Of a DNA stretch of 64,000 bases, positions 18,322 to 31,396 are shown piece after piece. A program made the position numbers and the translations under genes. Under the pieces are notes generated by a model. The model saw only the letters and a list, made by a program, of their open reading frames with translations. It ran no database searches and was not told the origin of the DNA. How positions within the stretch are numbered: position 1 is the first letter of the stretch; each line of letters starts with the position of its first letter. This DNA comes from Coleofasciculus sp. B1-GNL1-01 (GTDB lineage: Bacteria > Cyanobacteriota > Cyanobacteriia > Cyanobacteriales > Coleofasciculaceae), in assembly GCA_040220235.1 (NCBI GenBank), contig JAVJTO010000051.1; one strand, written 5' to 3'.

Positions 18322-18942
18322 ATGGAATGTCACAAATGTCAGAACACCTGCCACCGCAAGCCTAACAGAAGGAGGGGCTGGAAGTGGTGGAGCAAACCGC
18401 CGCAACCCTCACCCCTGAACACTGAACCGATTCCCCAAGTCGCGTTGGTGGGGACGCCCAATGTGGGTAAAAGTGTTCTGTTTAATGCCCTGACGGGTAC
18501 GTATGTCACCGTCTCCAACTATCCTGGTACAACGGTGGAAGTCTCCAGAGGTCAGATGACGGTTGGGGATCGCCTGTTTGCGGTGGTGGATACGCCAGGA
18601 ATGTATTCCCTACTCCCGATTACCGAAGAGGAAAAAGTGTCGCGGGATTTATTACTCCGCGAATCCGTAGACGTGGTGATTCATGTCGTCGATGCCAAAA
18701 ACTTAGGGCGGATGCTTCCCTTGACGTTTCAGCTTATTGAAGCAGGTTTGCCTGTGCTGTTAGCCGTGAACATGATCGATGAAGCCGAACAACTGGGGAT
18801 TCAGATTCACCGGGATCATCTGGAGATGGAATTAGGGATTCCGGTTGTCACTATGGCAGCGGCACTGAATGTTGGTTTACGAGACTTGAAATATAAGGTG
18901 GATGATTATGTTAAGTCAGGTTGCTTATCCGGAACCTATTGA
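18322..18942 (+). CDS. feoB: FeoB N-terminal GTPase domain protein
   Basis: GTPNVGKS, NYPGTTV, DTPG, NMID. Confidence 0.92.
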   Translation: MECHKCQNTCHRKPNRRRGWKWWSKPPQPSPLNTEPIPQVALVGTPNVGKSVLFNALTGTYVTVSNYPGTTVEVSRGQMTVGDRLFAVVDTPGMYSLLPITEEEKVSRDLLLRESVDVVIHVVDAKNLGRMLPLTFQLIEAGLPVLLAVNMIDEAEQLGIQIHRDHLEMELGIPVVTMAAALNVGLRDLKYKVDDYVKSGCLSGTY

Positions 18943-20359
18943 GGGGGCGATCGCGAAACTGGAGTCTTTGTTATCACGATTGTCGCTATCCCAGGATTAT
19001 CCCCTATCTCGGCGTAGTATTGCCCTACTCTTATTGCAAAAAGATCCGGCATTGTGGCAACAGCTTCAGCTTCAGGGGACAGAAGCCGAAATTCAAGCCG
19101 CGATCGCCGATGCTGAGAGTCAGTTGGATGAACCGTTAATTTCTGTCATTGCTAAGGCGCGTCAGCAACGGGCGTGGGTGATCGAACAAACGGTTCTCAG
19201 CGAATCCAGTCAAGGCAAAACCCCGTTAGCGGAACGACTGCACCAACTCACGGTGAATCCGTGGACAGGATTTCCGATTTTGCTGGCGATTCTCTATTAC
19301 GGGGTTTACAAATTTGTCGGCGAATTCGGGGCGGGGACGATGGTGGATACCATTGAAACCTTCTTTGAGACATATATTAATCCCGTTGTCAACCAAACGG
19401 TAGCGGTCATTTTACCCTGGCAACCCCTACAGGATTTAATTGCCCACGATTACGGGATTATTACCTTAGGGATTCGCTATGCGGTGGCGATTGTCTTACC
19501 CGTGGTTGCTACATTCTTTTTAATGTTTTCCTTCCTGGAAGACAGTGGCTATCTGCCGCGACTATCCCTAATGCTAGATAACCTGTTCAAAGCGATCGGG
19601 TTATCGGGGCGGGCGGTAATTCCGATTGTGTTGGGATTGGGATGTGATACGATGGCAACCTTAGTCACGCGAACCCTGGAAACGACACGGGAACGACTGA
19701 TTGCCACATTTTTACTCTCCTTAGCCATTCCCTGTGCGGCACAGTGGGGGGTAATTGTGGGATTGTTAGCTCAAAAACCTGCCGCGTTGTTGATTTGGGG
19801 AGGAGTGATTGGGGCGATTTTTATGATTACGGGCTATTTAAGCGCCCGCATGCTTCCGGGAAACCCAGCTAGTTTTTACATGGAAATTCCCCCCTTGCGC
19901 TTTCCCAAACTGCAAAACATTCTGGTGAAAACCTATCTCAGAATGAAGTGGTATTTCTTGGAAATTATGCCCCTATTTATTTGGGCATCAGTGATTATTT
20001 GGTTTGGGCGTTTGACCGGGTTGTTTGGCTGGATTATTCGGGGGATTGAGCCGATTGCCTTAGGATTAGGATTGCCCAGAGAAGCTGCACCTATCTTTTT
20101 ATATGGCTTCTTCCGGCGGGATTACGGCGCAGCTGGGTTGTTTGATATGCAGCAAGAGGGGATTTTTACGGGGAATCAGTTGGTGGTGACAGCGATTGTG
20201 TTGACGCTGTTTTTACCTTGTATTGCCCAACTGCAAGTCATGTTGAAAGAGCGCGGGGCGAAAATAACCTGGGCGATTGTGGCATTTATTTTTCCCTTTG
20301 CCTTTTTTGTGGGATATCTGGTCAATAGTTTGTTAAATGTATTAGGAGTGACGATTTAA
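18902..20359 (+). CDS. feoB: FeoB membrane (gate) domain protein
   Basis: LEDSGYLPR, GLGCD, IPCAAQ, FYMEIPP, LFLPCIA. Confidence 0.92.
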   Translation: MIMLSQVAYPEPIEGAIAKLESLLSRLSLSQDYPLSRRSIALLLLQKDPALWQQLQLQGTEAEIQAAIADAESQLDEPLISVIAKARQQRAWVIEQTVLSESSQGKTPLAERLHQLTVNPWTGFPILLAILYYGVYKFVGEFGAGTMVDTIETFFETYINPVVNQTVAVILPWQPLQDLIAHDYGIITLGIRYAVAIVLPVVATFFLMFSFLEDSGYLPRLSLMLDNLFKAIGLSGRAVIPIVLGLGCDTMATLVTRTLETTRERLIATFLLSLAIPCAAQWGVIVGLLAQKPAALLIWGGVIGAIFMITGYLSARMLPGNPASFYMEIPPLRFPKLQNILVKTYLRMKWYFLEIMPLFIWASVIIWFGRLTGLFGWIIRGIEPIALGLGLPREAAPIFLYGFFRRDYGAAGLFDMQQEGIFTGNQLVVTAIVLTLFLPCIAQLQVMLKERGAKITWAIVAFIFPFAFFVGYLVNSLLNVLGVTI

Positions 20360-22156: not shown

Positions 22157-23809
22157 ATGCAAACACTTGATTCGACCCAAGACACGATTCGTGTGTCTGC
22201 CCTCCACGCCCTCGCTTATTGTCCGCGCCTATTCTATCTAGAAGAAGTCGAAGAACTCTACACCCAAGACGCCGCCGTTTTTGCAGGGCGCCGACTCCAT
22301 GTCGAACTGGAAAAACAAGAGGATGAAGACTGGGAAGACTTATTCCTAGAAAGCCCAGAACTCGGATTACGCGGTCGAGTGGACGCCCTCCGCACCCGCG
22401 ATGGACAAACCATTCCCTACGAACATAAACGCGGACGCTGTTACCGAGACGAGAACAATCAACCCCAAGCCTGGGACAGTGATAAACTGCAAATTCTCGC
22501 CTACGCTTACCTGATTGAATCGGCTTTGGGTATCCCAATTTCAGAAGGACGAATTCGTTACCACGCCGATAACGTCTTAGTTCATGTTCCCCTAGATGAT
22601 CTCGGACGCGCCACGGTGCGAGATGCTATCCAACAAGCGCGAATTCTGCGACAATCCAGTCATCGTCCCCCCGTCACCGACAACGAGAGGATGTGTGTCC
22701 GTTGTTCCCTCTCCCCCGTCTGTTTACCCGAAGAAGCCCGACTCGCCCATAATCGGGAATGGCAACCGATGCGCCTCTTTCCCCCGGATGATGAACGCCA
22801 GGTGATTCATGTCTTGGAACCCGGAACAGCCGTTGGGCGTACCGGGGAACAACTGAAACTCAGCCGCCGGGGTCAACCTGTGGAAACGGTTCCCGTGCGT
22901 CAGGTGGGACAACTCGTCCTCCATAGTTTCTCCCAAATCTCCACCCAAGCGCTGCATTTTTGTGTGACTCAAGGAATTGGTGTGCATTTTATTTCTGGGG
23001 GTGGACGTTATATCGGTAGTTTTGATACCCGACAAGGCAGTATTCAGCGGCGCATCCATCAATATCAAGCCTTGAGTCAGCCGGATACTTGTCTGGAATT
23101 AGCCCGAAAATTAGTCACCTGTCGCGGTCAAGTACAGCGCAAATTCCTGATGCGGGGAAAGCGTGGCAGTCAGGGAAAATCGGCTAAACTAAAACGTGCG
23201 ATCGCGCAGATGAAAGCGGTACTAAAAAATGTCTCTTCTGCCCCATCTCGTGAATCGTTATTGGGATTGGAAGGGAATTTAGCCGCGTCCTATTTTGCCG
23301 CGTTACCCTGTTTAATTGCCGCCACAGTTCCGCCTGAATTACGCTTTGACCATCGCAATCGCCGCCCCCCCAAAGACCGATTTAATGCTTTGTTGAGTTT
23401 TGGCTATGCCTTATTAATTAAGGATGTGATGAATGCCATCCTCACCGTGGGACTAGAACCCGCATTGGGATTTTACCACCAACCTCGTTCTCAAGCTTCA
23501 CCATTGGCACTGGATTTAATGGAAATTTTCCGAGTTCCGTTGGTGGATATGGTGGTTATGGCTTCGATTAATAAAGGTCAGTGGGATGTACAAGCTGACT
23601 TTGACGTGCGAGGAGTACAGGTGTGGTTAAGTGATACGGGACGACGAAAGTTCGTGGGTTTATATGAACGCCGGAAACAGGAAACCTGGAAGCATCCTGT
23701 TACGGGTTATTCTCTCACCTATCGCCGTTTGTTGGAACTTGAAGTCCGTTTGCTGGAAAAAGAATGGTTCGGTGAAGGCGGTTTATTTGGTCAATTAATA
23801 GTGCGTTGA
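22157..23809 (+). CDS. cas1: Cas4-Cas1 fusion (type I-B/MYXAN)
   Basis: Cas4 YCPR, GRVD, YEHKRG, CVRCSLSPVC; Cas1 LGLEG, RNRRPPKDRFNALLSFGY, LALDLMEIFR. Confidence 0.96.
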   Translation: MQTLDSTQDTIRVSALHALAYCPRLFYLEEVEELYTQDAAVFAGRRLHVELEKQEDEDWEDLFLESPELGLRGRVDALRTRDGQTIPYEHKRGRCYRDENNQPQAWDSDKLQILAYAYLIESALGIPISEGRIRYHADNVLVHVPLDDLGRATVRDAIQQARILRQSSHRPPVTDNERMCVRCSLSPVCLPEEARLAHNREWQPMRLFPPDDERQVIHVLEPGTAVGRTGEQLKLSRRGQPVETVPVRQVGQLVLHSFSQISTQALHFCVTQGIGVHFISGGGRYIGSFDTRQGSIQRRIHQYQALSQPDTCLELARKLVTCRGQVQRKFLMRGKRGSQGKSAKLKRAIAQMKAVLKNVSSAPSRESLLGLEGNLAASYFAALPCLIAATVPPELRFDHRNRRPPKDRFNALLSFGYALLIKDVMNAILTVGLEPALGFYHQPRSQASPLALDLMEIFRVPLVDMVVMASINKGQWDVQADFDVRGVQVWLSDTGRRKFVGLYERRKQETWKHPVTGYSLTYRRLLELEVRLLEKEWFGEGGLFGQLIVR

Positions 23810-23817
23810 GGTGGGAT

Positions 23818-24111
23818 ATGGGTGAACAAAAAAACTGGTACTTAATTTGTTACGATATCCGCTGTCCCAAGCGCTGGCGCAAGGCGTATAAGTTACTTCA
23901 GGGATACGGTGAGCGGATTCAATACTCTATTTTCCGCTGTTTTTTGACCTTGCGGGGACGGGAAAAGTTGCGATGGGAGTTGGAGAGGGTATTAAAGGCG
24001 GAGGATAGTTTATTGCTAATTCGTCTTTCCGATCAATGTGTAAGTGGACTTCGCGCTTATAATCGTCCTGAGGCTTGGTCTGAGGTTCAAGCGGGATATC
24101 GGATTGTTTGA
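23818..24111 (+). CDS. cas2: CRISPR-associated Cas2
   Basis: YLICYDI, RIQYSIF, EDSLLLI. Confidence 0.95.
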   Translation: MGEQKNWYLICYDIRCPKRWRKAYKLLQGYGERIQYSIFRCFLTLRGREKLRWELERVLKAEDSLLLIRLSDQCVSGLRAYNRPEAWSEVQAGYRIV

Positions 24112-24119
24112 TGCAACAC

Positions 24120-24155
24120 TTAAGATTACCTCGGATGCCATTAGGTGTTGATTGA
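24120..24155 (+). repeat. Isolated degenerate CRISPR repeat just after cas2
   Basis: ttaagattacctcggatgccattaggtgttgattga keeps ATTACCT and hairpin GATGCC-ATTA-GGTGTT. Confidence 0.75.
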
Positions 24156-24291
24156 TCATGTTTTAACCTCTCTCCTACAAGGAGAGAGTGCTTTTCTACT
24201 CTTGGAAATGGTGTATCACATTGAGTCTGAAAACGCTGTAGCAGCGAGCAAGATGTTAGCAGCGAGCAAGATGCTCGCACTACTATAAGGA

Positions 24292-24357
24292 TGGGTTTGG
24301 GAAAGGCTTGCCAAACCGATTGGCAGTTATTATGATTTAAGAGTTCCTGTGATCGCT
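24292..24357 (+). promoter_or_regulatory. Truncated third leader (promoter part only)
   Basis: Matches the last about 65 bp of leaders 1/2 at identical spacing; TTGCCA(24308)-17-TATGAT(24331). Confidence 0.85.
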
Positions 24358-24542
24358 GTGCCATTACCTTTGATGCTGTAAGCGTTGAGTAGAGTAGAGT
24401 AGAGTACCCATTAGGTGTTGAGCAGAGCAGCGTTGAGCACTATCCCGTAAGTTGGACAGTTGCTGTGAAGCGGGCGGTGAGATTTATTCTTACTTGGGTC
24501 TTGCTGTCCTTGTTCCCTCAGATGCCGTCAGGCGTTTTTCTT
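24358..24542 (+). ncRNA. Degenerate mini-CRISPR / crRNA-like regulatory RNA targeting the cas6 promoter
   Basis: Repeat 5' half gtgccattacctttgatgctg, 49-nt insert, 3' half cagcgttgagcac, guide tatcccgtaagt..., downstream degenerate repeat ccctcagatgccgtcaggcgtttttc. Confidence 0.75.
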
Positions 24543-24558
24543 GAATTTCCTTTTACTG

Positions 24559-24587
24559 TTGACGAGGTGTATAAACCAATGTATCCT
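24559..24587 (+). promoter_or_regulatory. Sigma70-type promoter of the cas6-cas3-cmx8-cas7-cas5 operon
   Basis: TTGACG-17 bp-TATCCT, about 150 nt upstream of the cas6 ATG. Confidence 0.7.
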
Positions 24588-24668
24588 GTAAGTAAGAATA
24601 GAACATCTTAAGCCAGATGGTGCTGAAATTTTGGCTGGTGGGCAATACCCACCCTACGACTGATTTGA

Positions 24669-24714
24669 GTGCCATTCATCCCCACCTCTGATCGCCGTCA
24701 GGCGCTGAAAACAC
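24669..24714 (+). repeat. Degenerate CRISPR repeat in the cas6 5' UTR
   Basis: gtgccattcatccccacctctgatcgccgtcaggcgctgaaaacac; hairpin CGCC-GTCA-GGCG. Confidence 0.7.
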
Positions 24715-24736: not shown

Positions 24737-25372
24737 ATGAATTCGACAATAGTAGAACGGCAAACAGGTGCGTCTCCTATCGAACTGTTTGTCAATTTAA
24801 GCTTTAGTATTCAAGGACAAATGCTGCCGGCTGATCACGGCTTTGGCTTGTTTTCGGCTTTATCTAAACTTTGTGCGGCGATTCACCAGCAGAATGAAAT
24901 TCAGATATTGACGATTCCCGGTATTCCCGATCGCCAAGGGAAGATTGCGCTGACGGATAGATCGCGCCTGCTGATTCGTTTACCGATTACCAAGATTCCC
25001 TTGGTTTATGCGATCGCGGGAAAGCGAGTTCACATTGGTAATCATCCCATCCAGATTGGGATTCCCAGGATTGAACCCCTCAACGCCAAGTCAAGGGTGC
25101 GATCGCGGATTGTGACGATTAAAGGTTATACCGAACCCGAATCCTTCCTCCAGGCGGCGCAGCGTCAACTGAATCGGTTGGGGGTGTCGGGAGAGGTGCG
25201 AATTCCTCTAAATCGGGATCAAACACCAAAGCGCAAAGCGATAAAAATTCAGCAGGATACGGTAGTTGGATTTACCACTGAAGTTAGCCATCTTAGTGAA
25301 GAGGATTCCCTGACATTGCAACGGTGGGGATTAGGAGGGCGGCGACACATGGGTTGTGGGGTGTTTTTGTAA
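24737..25372 (+). CDS. cas6: Cas6 (Cmx6) crRNA endoribonuclease
   Basis: LPADHG, C-terminal glycine loop GLGGRRHMGCGVF. Confidence 0.95.
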   Translation: MNSTIVERQTGASPIELFVNLSFSIQGQMLPADHGFGLFSALSKLCAAIHQQNEIQILTIPGIPDRQGKIALTDRSRLLIRLPITKIPLVYAIAGKRVHIGNHPIQIGIPRIEPLNAKSRVRSRIVTIKGYTEPESFLQAAQRQLNRLGVSGEVRIPLNRDQTPKRKAIKIQQDTVVGFTTEVSHLSEEDSLTLQRWGLGGRRHMGCGVFL

Positions 25373-25497
25373 CCACTGATTTGACAGATTTATGGGGGAG
25401 ATGGGGGTGGGGGTGAGAGGTTAGTCACACTGATTACACTGAAACGTTAGTTCTCTCGTCTTGGGATGCTGAATCTGCCGCGAAAATTAGGTTGATT

Positions 25498-27849
25498 ATG
25501 TCTAAATTTAAACGACTTCTGGCTAAATCTATCTCTGATTCTGACTCAATTCGGAGTCAAAATGCGGCAAGATTTATAGGTCATATTGCTTTAGTTAAAC
25601 GAGGGGCTGAGGTATTACTTCAGCGTTTAGATAAACGGATTTTTCAACAACTGGGATTGGATGAGAATGAAGTGGAATTATTTACCAATACGGTGAGATT
25701 GGGGGCGTACTTACATGATTGGGGTAAGGCAAATCAGCATTTTCAAGAGATGGTTTATCTGCATACTGCCAAAAAATCCCAAGATCCGAAAAAACGGGAC
25801 AAGCTTAAACAACTGCGTCAATTATGGAATAAACATCAGGGTAAACAAATGATTCGCCATGAAGTTTTAAGCGGTATCCTCGCCTTGCGTGTTCCTGAAT
25901 TTCGCCATTGGTTAGAACAATGTCCCAATACTAATCTGGTGATAGCTGTTTGGGCGGCGATGGGACATCATTTGAAGATGAGTTCTGACCTGGACTTGAC
26001 AATCCGTAGTGGTACCGGAAGTGGTTTATTTATTTATACCGACCACAATGATTTTAAACAAATGTTAAAAATGGGTCGGCAATTGGGACTCCCGGCTAAT
26101 TTGCCTGCCGTTCCTGGAAAAGTTTGGCAGAAGGAAGAACTAGAACGAGAATTAAAAGAATTATATCAGGAATTTGACCAGATTGAACAGCAGATTATCG
26201 CTGAAAACGATACTAGGCGACTGAGATTTATTGCGGCGGTGAAAGCTACGGTAATCGCGGCGGATTTAGCGGGTTCGGCTTTACCTGTTGTGGACGAGAA
26301 TATTAAGGATTGGATTGAGAACGTTTTATCGATTACCCTATCTGAAAACGACTTAGATCAGGTTCTCCAACAACGACTGCAAGGGAAAAAATTACGCCCG
26401 TTTCAACAGAAAATTGCCGCGACTCCCCATCGAATTACTTTAGTTAAAGCCGGGTGTGGTACGGGAAAAACCGTTGGGGCGTATGCGTGGGCAAAAAAAT
26501 GGGCAGGCGATCGCAAGTTATTTTTTGGCTATCCGACGACGGGAACCGCGACTCAGGGGTTTATTGATTACGCCCATGAGACAAAAATTGAAGCCGATTT
26601 AATGCATTCTCGCGCTGATTTAGACCGAGAGATCTTGTTTTCTGGGGATGAAGATGAAGGGATTGAGGATCGCTTAGCCGCCCTCACCGCTTGGAGACAA
26701 AAGTTGATTGTTTGCACCGTAGATACGGTTTTGGGGCTAATGCAAAATAATCGGCGATCGCTGTATTCCTGGAGTGCGATCGCTCAAGGGGCTTTTGTGT
26801 TTGATGAGGTTCATGCTTATGATAACCGCTTATTTGGGGCTTTATTGCGATTTATAGACACCTTTCGCGGCGCACCCATTCTGTTGATGAGTGCCAGTTT
26901 TACACCAGAACAGATTCAGGCAATTCAAGGAGTAGTTGGCGAATTAGGAGAAGCGACTCAGATTATTGAAGGTCCGAAAAATTTAGAAGTTTTACCGCGA
27001 TATCAGATTGAGTCTATCCCATCAGCCGATAACGCTTGGCAGAAGGTGCGAGAAACCTTAACTCGTCAACACCAGAATAAAGTGTTATGGGTGACAAATT
27101 CGGTTAACACCTGTCGGGAACTGTATCTAGAGGCAAAAAAACAGCTTCCGGATTCAATCCCTATATTAATTTATCACAGTCGCTATCGCTATTTTGACCG
27201 ATTGGAGAAACATAAAGCCGTGATCAACGCCTTTGAACGTGACGGGGCGGTGTTAGCAATTACCACTCAAGTTTGTGAAATGTCCTTAGATTTGAGTGCG
27301 GATTTATTAGTCACGCCCATCGCCCCAGCATCGGCGTTAATTCAGCGATTAGGGCGATTAAATCGGCGGGTGATTACTACAGCAAACTATCGGGTAAAAC
27401 TGGCGTCGGGTCAAATTACCCCAGCCTTAGTTTACCCCTGGGATGATTCACGTCCTTATTCCCAAGACGAATTAGAAACGGGACAGCAGTTGGTTAATAA
27501 ACTAGCCGAAAAAGTGATTTCCCAGCAAGATTTAGCCACGATTGTCGCCCAAATGTCTACTCCAGAACAACAGCCAAGTCAATCGGAATGGTTAGAGGGA
27601 TGTTGGTGTACCCGTCCTAATTTTCTACGGGAACCGGGCTATACGATTACGGTTTTACTAGAGGAAGATTTAGTTAATATTAAAAATGCCGCCAATCAAC
27701 GTCAGGATAAATCCTTTAAAAAAGAACGTCAACGGTGGACAATTCCAATTCGGATTATCCCTGGGTTTGAGAAGTGGCGGCGGAATGGATATTATCCCAT
27801 CGCACCCCCTGATCAAGTGGAATACAGTTCAGAAACAGGGGCAAAATGA
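25498..27849 (+). CDS. cas3: Cas3 HD nuclease-helicase
   Basis: HDWGK, RHE, GHH, AADLAGS; GCGTGKT, DEVH, MSAS, QRLGRLNR. Confidence 0.96.
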   Translation: MSKFKRLLAKSISDSDSIRSQNAARFIGHIALVKRGAEVLLQRLDKRIFQQLGLDENEVELFTNTVRLGAYLHDWGKANQHFQEMVYLHTAKKSQDPKKRDKLKQLRQLWNKHQGKQMIRHEVLSGILALRVPEFRHWLEQCPNTNLVIAVWAAMGHHLKMSSDLDLTIRSGTGSGLFIYTDHNDFKQMLKMGRQLGLPANLPAVPGKVWQKEELERELKELYQEFDQIEQQIIAENDTRRLRFIAAVKATVIAADLAGSALPVVDENIKDWIENVLSITLSENDLDQVLQQRLQGKKLRPFQQKIAATPHRITLVKAGCGTGKTVGAYAWAKKWAGDRKLFFGYPTTGTATQGFIDYAHETKIEADLMHSRADLDREILFSGDEDEGIEDRLAALTAWRQKLIVCTVDTVLGLMQNNRRSLYSWSAIAQGAFVFDEVHAYDNRLFGALLRFIDTFRGAPILLMSASFTPEQIQAIQGVVGELGEATQIIEGPKNLEVLPRYQIESIPSADNAWQKVRETLTRQHQNKVLWVTNSVNTCRELYLEAKKQLPDSIPILIYHSRYRYFDRLEKHKAVINAFERDGAVLAITTQVCEMSLDLSADLLVTPIAPASALIQRLGRLNRRVITTANYRVKLASGQITPALVYPWDDSRPYSQDELETGQQLVNKLAEKVISQQDLATIVAQMSTPEQQPSQSEWLEGCWCTRPNFLREPGYTITVLLEEDLVNIKNAANQRQDKSFKKERQRWTIPIRIIPGFEKWRRNGYYPIAPPDQVEYSSETGAK

Positions 27850-27909
27850 TTTGTAGGGGCGCTATCCTTGCGCCCGAAAAACTCAAGGAAACGCCAATAA
27901 TTTGAATCA

Positions 27910-28080
27910 GGGCGGGTTTTGTTGTTCATTTATCGGTGAGGAGGGCGGGTTTTGTTGTTCATTTATCGGTGAATATCTGAATTTAGTCCCTAAACCCGCC
28001 CCTACAGATTCCCTAAACCCGCCCCGACAATTGATTCCCTAAACCCGCCCCGACAATTGTCCCTAAACCCGCCCCGACAA
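27910..28080. repeat. Compound REP-like palindrome cluster (gggcgggttt ... aaacccgccc x4)
   Basis: Duplicated left arm and four tandem ccctaaacccgcccc right arms between cas3 and cmx8. Confidence 0.8.
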
Positions 28081-28130
28081 TCCGGATTAATCAAAGGTAA
28101 ATTCATAACTAATAGGTCGATTAAACGTTT

Positions 28131-29633
28131 ATGTCAACCCAATTAACTTTAAAATTAAATAATCCTCACTTTACTTTACTCCATCGCGCCGGATTAGCTG
28201 GGTTATGGATGAGTTTAAAGCAACTTGAAGCCGAAACAAATATTCGCGATCGCCCGGGTTATATTACCTGGGAACTAACACAGCGTCAGGTGAGTTTACA
28301 GTGGGAGGGAGAGGATTTTCAAGTCTTAAATTGGCTATTAAACGAATCCTTTCAATTAGACGATGGACGGATATCTTTAAGAGGATTAGTCTCGAAGACA
28401 ATGGACATTCAATCTCAGTTAATCCTGCACCAAGGTATCCTGGGAACATTTTTACAACATAATAAAACCCATACATCTACAGGACTTGTCTCTAAATCCT
28501 TTGTGATTGAAGAAGGTAAACCCGAATTAGTGGCGCGATATAAACATCTCTCTGGATACATCTATCAACAGGCAAAAATACTGTGTGACAAGCAGGGAAA
28601 ATTCCTCACCAAACCGATTAAAGTACCGGGATGGTTAAATCCGGGGACAGTAGTACGACATATTGCCTTTAGTTCCAGTACCAGCTTTGAAGAACCACCA
28701 GACGCCGTATTCGTTTTATTATTTGCCGCCGTAGCCTGTTGTTACTATTCGATTCGGTCTAAATTACGGGATAAACGGGCAGAATATGCTTTAGTAATTC
28801 CCGAAATTACCGACTTAGCCGCTTATGCCAATTGGCGGCGTCATCGGAAATGGCGCGAGGAGGGATACAAGGACTTTTTTGCCTCTGGGTTAGGGGATGC
28901 GGGGTTAAAATTTTTGACTTATATTACTAAGGATATTTTGGCAGAACGTCCCTTACAACGCTGTCAGGTGATTACATTAGGAACAGTTCCTTGGGCAAGT
29001 CAACAAAAAACGCGCACGGATTTGTATTTAGTGGAGGCAAATGAACGAATTGAGCGGAATTATCAGGTTTGCGATAATTATTTAAGTACCCGTGATGTGG
29101 CGGGGAAAGAAGGGTTGTTTATTTCCTGTAGTTTTGCCAGGGAGTTAATTGCAGAAAACTTAGCCAGGGGTAAACATTGGTATGCAGGTTTGGCAGATAA
29201 TGCCACAAGTAACGAGTTATTTCAAAAATTGACCTATGAACGCGGAGGACTAAATCAGATGGTTCAAGAAGTGGAATGGGATCGAGAAAGTGAGAAGCTA
29301 TTTGTCAAGGCTTGTCATGAAGCGATCGCCTATAACCATAAACAACTTTATAAACGAGCAAAAGAGAAGAAGGAAGAGCCGAATTATGAACGGGAGGATA
29401 CCAAATTTCGCACCGGATTAGCACGGTGTAAAACCGCTGTGGCGTTTCGGGAGTTTATTACCGATTACTTGTCGAGGGCGCAATTTATGCCCACCCTGGA
29501 GGAAAATTGGGAAGAGTTTATGGATTTGATTCTGGGGGCAAAGGATTGGAAAAAAGGACGAGATTTAGCGTTATTAGCCTTAGCCAGTTATCAGCGCAGT
29601 AGTCAGAGTCAAGAGGAGGAATTTGATTTTTAA
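28131..29633 (+). CDS. cmx8: Cascade large subunit Cmx8 (Cas8, type I-B/MYXAN)
   Basis: LLHRAGLAGL, GTFLQH, GWLNPG..VRH, QQKTRT, DLALLALASY. Confidence 0.92.
   Translation: MSTQLTLKLNNPHFTLLHRAGLAGLWMSLKQLEAETNIRDRPGYITWELTQRQVSLQWEGEDFQVLNWLLNESFQLDDGRISLRGLVSKTMDIQSQLILHQGILGTFLQHNKTHTSTGLVSKSFVIEEGKPELVARYKHLSGYIYQQAKILCDKQGKFLTKPIKVPGWLNPGTVVRHIAFSSSTSFEEPPDAVFVLLFAAVACCYYSIRSKLRDKRAEYALVIPEITDLAAYANWRRHRKWREEGYKDFFASGLGDAGLKFLTYITKDILAERPLQRCQVITLGTVPWASQQKTRTDLYLVEANERIERNYQVCDNYLSTRDVAGKEGLFISCSFARELIAENLARGKHWYAGLADNATSNELFQKLTYERGGLNQMVQEVEWDRESEKLFVKACHEAIAYNHKQLYKRAKEKKEEPNYEREDTKFRTGLARCKTAVAFREFITDYLSRAQFMPTLEENWEEFMDLILGAKDWKKGRDLALLALASYQRSSQSQEEEFDF
29259..29633 (+). CDS. cas11: Cas11 small subunit from an internal in-frame start in cmx8 (124 aa)
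   Basis: GGAGG at 29244-29248 and in-frame ATG at 29259 (MVQEVEW); internal Cas11 translation is established for I-B/I-C/I-D. Confidence 0.8.
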   Translation: MVQEVEWDRESEKLFVKACHEAIAYNHKQLYKRAKEKKEEPNYEREDTKFRTGLARCKTAVAFREFITDYLSRAQFMPTLEENWEEFMDLILGAKDWKKGRDLALLALASYQRSSQSQEEEFDF

Positions 29634-29728
29634 TAGTAAATGTTGTCAGGGCGTGTAGGGGCGAAGCATTGGTGCCACCATCTTTATCCGAATCCGAATA
29701 ATTTTGGGTTTTAATCATCAATTGAATC

Positions 29729-29792
29729 AGGGCGGGTTTCGTTGTTCAGTTATCAGTCACCCCCTTAATTAAGTCCCTAAACCCGCCCCTAC
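29729..29792. repeat. REP-like palindrome between cmx8 and cas7
   Basis: agggcgggttt...aaacccgcccct. Confidence 0.75.
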
Positions 29793-29846
29793 AGCCCAGA
29801 TCTCAACCCCAAAGTAATCAATTATCAACCATTTGGAGAACAAATC

Positions 29847-30767
29847 ATGACCTTTCATTTATTTGGCAATATCTTAACTAGCTACGGCACCGCCGCCAAT
29901 AACCGTGGCGAAAATGAAGGCAATATTACCACCCTGCAAAAACTCCTCTGGAAAGGAGAGGTTCACACCACCGTATCCGCTGAAGCCATCCGCTGGGCGC
30001 TACGATACTATTGGCAAACTGCTGGGGGTGACTATGCGGTAAATCGCTGTTGGGATGATCAGAAAAATGATAATGTTTTACAGGGGAGTTTTGATGAAAC
30101 CACCTACATTGATGATGATGTCCTCGGTTACATGAAAGCGGAAGGGGCGAAACAAGAATTTAGTGACGAAGAGAAAAAAGGGAAAGGGAAGAAAGCCAAA
30201 GGGACTAATTTAGCAAGGCGGGGAGTCTTAGAAGTCACTCGCGCTGTTTCCACGATTCCTTATGCGGGAGATATTACCTTTAATTCCGCCAGTGGACAAA
30301 AGGGGAGAACCTCTCTTTATGGCACAGAAGTTCACGCCACGCGCTATCAATATGGGTTCGCTTTAACCCCTAATCGATTGAAAGAGACATCTCGGATCAT
30401 TCCAGTGTTAGACGGGTTAGTATCCCTAGGAGAAGTCGCCGGAAACCACGCCCGTTTTCTCTATGATTTTTCGCCAGAAAGTTTAGTCTTGCGGTGGACA
30501 CAGGATTTCTCGCCTCGGATTCTCTATTGTTTCCAGGAAAATGAAGATGGGGAGATATCTTTGCCCAGTTTAATCCATCGTGTGGAAGTGGGAGACATTG
30601 AAGCAACGGAACTTTGGGTAGCCGGTGCAATTGCCAAAACCCCAGAGGGCGATCGCTTGGAGGAATTAGGTGCTAATGTGCTAGCGGGGACAAAAGTAGC
30701 ACTTTCGACGCTAAAACAACGGATTGCTGATGATTTACAGTTACCGCAATTGGAGGGAGTATCATGA
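29847..30767 (+). CDS. cas7: Cas7 (Cst2/DevR)
   Basis: ANNRGENEGN, VSAEAIRWALR, DDDVLGYM, EVHATRYQY, GNHARFLYDFSP. Confidence 0.96.
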   Translation: MTFHLFGNILTSYGTAANNRGENEGNITTLQKLLWKGEVHTTVSAEAIRWALRYYWQTAGGDYAVNRCWDDQKNDNVLQGSFDETTYIDDDVLGYMKAEGAKQEFSDEEKKGKGKKAKGTNLARRGVLEVTRAVSTIPYAGDITFNSASGQKGRTSLYGTEVHATRYQYGFALTPNRLKETSRIIPVLDGLVSLGEVAGNHARFLYDFSPESLVLRWTQDFSPRILYCFQENEDGEISLPSLIHRVEVGDIEATELWVAGAIAKTPEGDRLEELGANVLAGTKVALSTLKQRIADDLQLPQLEGVS

Positions 30768-31396
30768 TTACCGCCCTCAAAGTTGAGGTTCCCATCGCCT
30801 GTTTCCGTGTCTCCCGCGCCAGGGAATATGCCCAAACTTATCCGGTTCCGCCTCCAGCTACGGTTTATGGTATGCTTTTATCCATGGTGGGAGAAATGGA
30901 TCGATATCGGTATTGTGGGACTAAGTTAGCGATCGCACTATTAAATGAGCCGGAAAAATCCACCATCCTCCGCACCTTTCGCCGATTCAAAAAGAAGCAA
31001 ATCTTTGATCCCACGAATGCCCGTCCTGATTATCAAGAGTTACTCAGTGATATTCAGTTTATCGTCTGGGTAGCCTCTGGAAACGACAACGCCCAACCAA
31101 CATTATGCCAACGATTAACCGAGGCGATCGCGAATCCAGAAACGGTGGATCGATTTGGTGGGTTAAGTTTGGGTGAAAGTCGGGATTTAGTCAATGCGAT
31201 TAATTTGTTACCGGAAGACTATCGGGGTGAATCCCTACGCTGGTTAGTGCAGCAGGAGGATGGTTTGTTAACATTACCCTATTGGGTGGATCACGTTGGT
31301 TCAAAAGGAACCCGTTGGCAACGATTTCAGTTACTTCCTCCCCGTGAATGGTGTCAACCGCCGGATAATGCGTGGATAGAGATTCGGGTGGAGTAA
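30764..31396 (+). CDS. cas5: Cas5 (Cmx5/DevS)
   Basis: VPIACFR, TYPVPPPATVYGMLLS, LSLGES, LPYWVDHVGS. Confidence 0.96.
   Translation: MITALKVEVPIACFRVSRAREYAQTYPVPPPATVYGMLLSMVGEMDRYRYCGTKLAIALLNEPEKSTILRTFRRFKKKQIFDPTNARPDYQELLSDIQFIVWVASGNDNAQPTLCQRLTEAIANPETVDRFGGLSLGESRDLVNAINLLPEDYRGESLRWLVQQEDGLLTLPYWVDHVGSKGTRWQRFQLLPPREWCQPPDNAWIEIRVE

Follow-up and report, generated by a model that had tools for sequence, protein, structure and literature searches.

A split, enlarged first repeat in a putative CreR-type mini-array upstream of cas6 in a Coleofasciculus type I-B CRISPR locus

Organization of the cas locus and mini-array

The window, as we term the whole stretch of 64,000 nucleotides that was analyzed, contains a type I-B (MYXAN) CRISPR locus in which a split repeat lies in the gap between cas2 and cas6 (Table 1). 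The CRISPR arrays comprise 13 and 5 copies of a 36-nt repeat. The nearest named record to the window's Cas6 is from a Coleofasciculus MAG (98% identity), and its Cas7 matches type I-B Cas7 structures at E values of 1e-58 and 2e-19 (PDB 8H67 and 8FCJ). Searching the window against Rfam returned three tRNAs and no other known RNA family. Two single degenerate repeats lie on either side of the mini-array. The one following cas2 has a 14-bp stretch (24138–24151) in common with the second half-copy of the split repeat (24408–24421). The one in the cas6 5′ leader is a possible candidate for a Cas6 site on cas6's own mRNA, and a repeat hairpin of this type past the second repeat is present in 15 of 29 loci checked.

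Table 1. Features of the cas locus and mini-array, with positions in the window
Feature	Position	Strand	Remarks
cas4/cas1 fusion and cas2, type I-B (MYXAN)	22157..24111	+	TIGR03983, 589 bits; TIGR01573
Single degenerate repeat	24120..24155	+	directly 3′ of cas2 stop
Leader-derived mini-array promoter (predicted)	24292..24357	+	−35 at 24308, −10 at 24331–24336
Pseudo-repeat 1, 5′ half (18 nt)	24358..24375	+	aligns to intact first repeat of G396 copy 1
Pseudo-repeat 1, 3′ half copy 1	24376..24407	+	one G lost, giving 3-nt loop; handle changed to GAGTA, slipped to 4 copies
Pseudo-repeat 1, 3′ half copy 2	24408..24429	+	ATTA loop variant; C>T adjoining cut site; plus one slipped GAGCA
Pseudo-repeat 1, 3′ half copy 3 remnant	24430..24440	+	intact 8-nt handle, 24433–24440
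Pseudo-spacer, 66 nt	24441..24506	+	positions 1–12 match cas6 promoter with one mismatch (position 6)
15-bp hairpin, distal spacer	24472..24509	+	starts at guide position 32; z −5.3
Pseudo-repeat 2	24507..24542	+	canonical tetraloop hairpin, decayed 3′ tail
cas6 operon promoter (predicted)	24559..24593	+	−35 at 24559, −10 at 24582–24587
Single degenerate repeat hairpin	24669..24706	+	in cas6 5′ leader
cas6-cas3-cas8-cas7-cas5 operon	24737..31396	+	predicted regulated unit

The stretch upstream of the mini-array is 82–84% like the array leaders. Leader homology extends over ∼70 nt in the window and ∼160 nt in a JGI metagenome contig (L163). The predicted mini-array promoter lies within this leader-like stretch and matches the consensus at 10 of 12 positions; from the sequence, its start site was placed near 24343.

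The protospacer at 24582–24593, behind an ATG PAM at 24579–24581, spans the predicted −10 box of the cas6 operon promoter and matches the guide at 11 of 12 nucleotides. Scored by seed, this is the best ATG-PAM match in the 8.66-Mb genome (10 of 10 counted positions; the next best, 8, occurs at three sites). An earlier sequence-only reading had described the guide after the last handle as promoter-targeting, and this description is borne out. A genome of another genus, G396, has the same guide, in which guide and target are both altered at position 7 relative to the window. The predicted mature RNA would extend from 24433 to 24534 (102 nt). In the spacer hairpin, the two differences found in the same-genus genome G003 lie in the loop or preserve a pair.

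Sequence and reality of the split first repeat

The motifs that the sequence-only reading reported in the first repeat were all present where it had placed them: GATGCTG (24372–24378), AGCGTT (24381–24386), (GAGTA)x4 (24387–24406), an extra copy of the 3′ half (24408–24424), CAGCGTT (24428–24434) and GAGCAC (24435–24440), followed by the guide. The “49-nt insert” of that reading corresponds to the loop of the distal stem (24379–24427), and the 83-nt pseudo-repeat 1 (24358–24440) exceeds the 36-nt array repeat by a net 47 nt. The 5′ half carries the base of the sole repeat-type 5′ stem arm. Applying the rule of an 8-nt handle (given in the available part of PMC9458426), Cas6 is predicted to cut before 24433.

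Perfect pentamer tracts of at least three copies number 14 in the 8.66-Mb genome. The GAGTA tract is the only one of its unit, which rules out a dispersed pentamer family, and the rarity of such tracts makes a chance occurrence unlikely. An assembly artefact is ruled out because the same insert was found in G003, in JGI metagenome contigs and in contigs assembled from runs. G003 has the insert with six pentamers. Of six pattern matches in the JGI metagenome, four are the insert with four pentamers and two are unrelated chance matches. All four runs gave contigs with the insert, carrying three, two, four and four pentamers. The proposed check in relatives thus yielded an insert that is not unique to one strain and a pentamer number that varies between strains (2, 3, 4 or 6). 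Metatranscriptome contigs span 24292–24646; note that contigs carry neither RNA ends nor levels. No RNA contig covered 24674–24800, a gap to which no weight can be given. Between the window and G003, there are no substitutions over 24292–24460 and 16 in the 636 positions compared in cas6. Pentamer tracts recur at the same position in two more loci, L032 and L037.

Origin of the insert

Judged by its sequence, the insert is one 5′ half-repeat and three 3′ half-repeats, with slippage. In the allele from one run, X5 (read by the analyst from difference tables), the junction of copies 2 and 3 consists of two 18-nt halves in tandem, the last of which has exactly the sequence of the 3′ half in the first repeat of G396 copy 1, where that repeat is intact. 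The window allele reads as one in which part of an X5-type junction was lost through GAGCA slippage. On this reading, the 18-nt 3′ half would have been duplicated in tandem twice, after which the handle pentamer slipped. The three halves bear different loop variants, and simple slippage falls short of explaining the route of duplication.

An ordinary array of G140 contains the same 18-nt half duplication, and a decayed array of G188 contains it twice. The junction that marks it was found in 4 of 401 genomes, G000 and G003 among them, as compared with none for a reversed-pattern control. Because half duplication recurs in ordinary arrays, it can be viewed as a recurrent mutation of this repeat family for which no regulatory purpose is needed, and the idea of a purposeful insert is not supported. 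In G140 (L229, near position 1500, minus strand), the half duplication falls exactly at the switch between two repeat variants.

Two further proposals concerned the mutations themselves. The stem changes had been called compensatory; X5 has G, not A, opposite the stem U, and GAGCA slippage produced the distal A, deletion of 1 nt the local one, so within this lineage the label is not supported. Decay by slippage had been offered as a fallback, and slippage does account for the origin of the insert, but not for the retained guide and handle.

Predicted folding of the first repeat

The GATGCTG arm can pair locally with AGCGTT or distally with CAGCGTT, and the sequence-only reading had proposed that folding could set how much regulatory RNA is made. 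Folding was computed with ViennaRNA at 28 and 37°C using Turner 2004 energies only. The predicted ensembles are dominated by the local hairpin, with its 3-nt loop, or by other folds, among them folds that pair with the guide. When RNAs were folded from the predicted start site, the probability of the distal fold was at most 0.002 in every natural allele at both temperatures, and its cost was ∼4–9 kcal/mol in all of them. When the repeat was folded alone, the distal fold reached 0.10 (x4), 0.03 (x3), 0.01 (x6) and 0.006 (X5). The probability of the local fold ranged from 0.09 to 0.95 across alleles and was not monotonic in pentamer number. Folded by ViennaRNA without protein, no natural allele thus showed a productive fold close in energy to a competing one, and these values speak against a bistable fold.

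A switch, in which conditions decide between local and distal folds, or a dial, in which the number of GAGTA units does so and thereby tunes CreR yield and Cas level, is in our estimate highly improbable. The part of the dial proposal that stands is that the tract differs between strains, from two to six pentamers; that such tracts are rare in the genome yet recur here in L032 and L037, and that the local-fold probability swings so widely between alleles, also favor it. Against it, the productive distal fold stays near zero at both temperatures and shows no trend with copy number, and simple mutation explains the structure. Copy number did not vary within any sample, although contigs could not have revealed such variation. 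Very doubtful, too, is the wider conjecture that in cyanobacterial type I-B CreRs the first-repeat loop is a free site for tuning Cas6 yield, and that here the GAGTA tract is a contingency locus setting repression strain by strain. If real, control of CRISPR expression by a pentamer dial would be truly unexpected, but little evidence points to it.

With two other Cas6 enzymes from cyanobacteria, cutting agreed with the stability of the hairpin in 43 of 50 cases, and most poorly folding hairpins remained uncut (PMC5741207, available part). By this rule, the poor predicted fold leads us to expect a low yield from the window allele, which may even escape processing altogether.

Such an escape would make the locus a decayed regulator, with processing ruined, no functional CreR, and a guide-target match that is an ancestral leftover. 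Besides the near-zero distal fold, in competition with the local hairpin and guide-pairing folds, decay is favored by the occurrence of half duplications in arrays without function and by the second CreR copy of G396, where the guide persists beside a decayed first repeat. We nevertheless judge decay unlikely, since all strains seen have the same or almost the same handle, seed, promoter and target but differ in the number of pentamers and at the inner junction, and since the damage is concentrated in the inner copies. Decoy guides released by cuts at the inner copies were considered and rejected: no AYG-PAM site with more than 8 matched positions was found for them in the genome.

Related loci in cyanobacteria

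We screened 91 loci around cyanobacterial cas6 homologues, some of them redundant. A handle and a second repeat were found in 46, of which 40 had an ATG-flanked seed of at least 7 and 31 one of at least 10. When nine other trinucleotides were used in place of the PAM, at most two loci had a seed of at least 7 and none one of at least 10. Removal of near-duplicates and of L194 (an ordinary array) left 28 distinct guides; note that these loci are kin rather than independent samples. The guide mismatches its target at position 6 in 23 of the 28 and at position 12 in 21.

The loop of the first repeat is 9–93 nt in 13 of the 28 and 4–6 nt in 8, with the 5′ arms of these 21 first repeats set partly by hand; the other 7 have no assignable 5′ arm. 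Outside the window lineage, 10 of 12 first repeats with enlarged loops close the basal stem at P≥0.95, as compared with 0.13–0.53 when the enclosed part was shuffled (9 of the 10 tested), and within the whole precursor the 10 stems retain 0.48–1.0. The two relatives with enlarged loops that fold poorly are L034 (0.24) and L032 (0.45). The third pair of the stem is U-A in five relatives and G-C in two, and the 7-bp arms of the distal stem in the window recur unchanged in L120. Inner copies of the 3′ half in L033, L094, L098, L115 and L116 are all altered, and the handle adjacent to the guide is near canonical. All 28 second repeats have 4-nt loops, a result built partly into the screen.

From these comparisons it appears that Cas6 needs the base of the stem at repeat 1 and not its loop; repeat 2 may stay canonical because Cas6 remains bound there. 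The distal stem had been proposed as the Cas6 substrate of the window. It uses the sole repeat-type 5′ arm upstream of the last handle and relatives close the equivalent stem, but this allele folds poorly: the predicted structure is of the right kind, yet among the family's worst folders.

The CreR might instead be functional and mature without the distal stem, by cutting of the local hairpin, by direct reading of the sequence at the last handle, or by host-RNase trimming of the 5′ extension to a handle protected by Cas5. Handle and guide are retained although the distal stem is unfavorable, 7 of 28 relatives lack a clear 5′ arm, and the Cas6 of haloarchaea is believed to act without regard to the structure of the repeat (PMC9458426, available part). 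We consider such maturation quite unlikely, because the family retains the basal stem with changed pairs and because inserts close the stem better than shuffles do.

Leader homology upstream of the CreR was clear only in the window and G003 (z 12–34) and weak in L033 (z 3.8); copy 1 in G396 looks leader-derived by eye. A leader-linked block of spacer uptake was rejected as a general cause of loop expansion, since 16 of the 19 locus pairs whose fetched stretch included an array were without leader homology (in 10 more pairs, no array was detected). G396 carries two copies of one CreR 3 kb apart (L159 and L160), one with an intact first repeat and the other, adjacent to cas6, with a decayed one. 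In L113, L130, L137 and L155, the enlarged loop contains the guide's own target with an ATG PAM, and these CreRs may, by their sequences, repress their own gene. In L126 and L129, the other strand carries the target, directly at the second repeat, and the two strains have different bases at guide position 6.

Spacer classes and small open reading frames

The spacers fall into two classes, of 57–76 nt (16 of 28, including the window) and 20–44 nt (12 of 28). A hairpin begins at guide position 29–45 in the long spacers and ends 6–14 nt before the second stem; z values of −1.6 or lower were obtained for 13 of the 16 long and 3 of the 12 short spacers. RNAalifold gave no consensus structure on a MAFFT (sequence-only) alignment of 15 long-spacer sequences, and covariation for the named long-spacer structure was not above shuffles (61–91 of 500), so the hairpin rests on folding of each sequence individually. 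In the window and 15 relatives (for example L091, L092, L097 and L113) it sits just past one Cas7-backbone length. Several CreRs with long spacers have a common short, pyrimidine-rich loop start.

Small ORFs between the target and cas6 were found at 9 of 11 short-class and 2 of 15 long-class loci. Those under the targeted promoter in L106, L108, L110, L112, L114, L115, L120, L126 and L039 encode 50–124 aa. A Pfam scan of nine small ORFs gave no match at the cut-off, only weak coiled-coil matches. The short-class ORFs are candidates for CRISPR-repressed toxins or regulators, and the distribution suggests CreA-like and stand-alone CreR groups. In the window, no ORF of at least 35 aa is present in the 158 nt before cas6, and the protein toxin characteristic of CrePA was accordingly not found there.

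Comparison with known systems

Statements on published systems refer to the available parts of the sources cited. CreR/crlRNA autoregulators target the cas6 promoter in type I-B systems (10.1101/2023.03.03.530964, 10.1101/2023.03.10.532045). With them the window shares two degenerate repeats, one pseudo-spacer and a mismatch at position 6 (same sources). The two repeat-like units of the window lie outside the main array and within the cas locus, the guide has a seed-only match to a cas promoter behind the canonical PAM (ATG), the first repeat retains the 8-nt 5′ handle and the second the Cas6 hairpin. The window differs in that its first repeat is 83 nt long with three 3′ halves, and in that its spacer is 66 nt with a hairpin, whereas 20–60 bp is typical in the available part of the CreR/crlRNA survey. 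The mini-array has an array-type leader, while the survey ascribes short mini-arrays to absence of a leader. The string “cyanobacter” does not occur in the main text of either 10.1101/2023.03.10.532045 or 10.1101/2023.03.03.530964, and two small supplements of PMC10120712 contain no cyanobacterial names. In the literature searched, neither loop-expanded first repeats nor CreR spacers bearing hairpins were found, although the surveys' large supplementary tables may list such loci.

CreA of CreTA and CrePA likewise has a more degenerate first repeat, which is decisive for processing by Cas6 (PMC9458426, 10.1101/2024.01.05.574328). Haloarchaeal CreA repeats are unstructured (PMC9458426), whereas the cyanobacterial CreR family retains a stem. 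The type I-B (Cmx/MYXAN) Cascade of Synechocystis PCC 6714 has the same Cas families as the window (PMC11096372; PDB 8H67) and uses an ATG-type PAM and a 35-nt spacer with every sixth base flipped (PMC11096372). The window's ATG PAM and position-6 mismatch agree with that PAM and flipped sixth base. In the available text, the account of this Cascade includes no autoregulatory RNA, and Cas6 and the 3′ hairpin are unresolved in the structure (PMC11096372). In a type I-E case, a 1-nt deletion that shrinks the loop is linked to poor Cas6 processing (10.1101/2024.10.29.618823).

Interpretation

The locus very probably belongs by descent to the CreR kind, and a CreR-type self-repression circuit is already known. 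On balance, we incline to a CreR that represses its own cas6 operon, in which the insert is a tolerated mutational scar that leaves a low yield and no regulated switch. A short RNA would be transcribed from the leader-derived promoter. The local hairpin would form first; its loop is shrunken and its handle changed, so Cas6 may cut it poorly. The long-range stem would occasionally be captured, probably by Cas6 itself, and cut before 24433. As in known CreR systems, a second Cas6 cut at pseudo-repeat 2 would release an RNA of about 100 nt, and the type I-B Cascade would load this RNA, bind the match over the −10 box of the cas6 promoter, and block transcription without cutting DNA. The insert would be tolerated because, judging from its relatives, pseudo-repeat 1 seems to require no more than the stem base beside an intact handle. 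Because both inner copies carry damage in the loop or at the cut site, the long-range stem should be the only productive substrate. That stem being rare, CreR output from the window allele is likely low and the resulting repression weak.

The comparison yields a series of naturally occurring alleles for the Cas6 of a type I-B system that is now used in genome editing. The series includes first-repeat loops from 4 to more than 60 nt with the stem base retained, and guides with a 30–45-nt hairpin past the Cas7-bound part. If they are processed, these alleles mark the positions in type I-B guides that accept RNA cargo, and they show how damage to a repeat sets the strength of a regulator. Searches based on repeats will overlook such mini-arrays.

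Additional observations

An 18-nt tandem unit at 24239–24277 is present in two copies in the window and ∼10 in G003; the unit is a dispersed genomic repeat, and the contig of G007 terminates there. In G004 (L006, near 1550–1625), two complete repeats stand in tandem without a spacer at the leader end of an array. The feoB sequence at 18322–20359 is split over two overlapping ORFs, corresponding to the GTPase and membrane parts, which indicates either a frameshift or a split gene.
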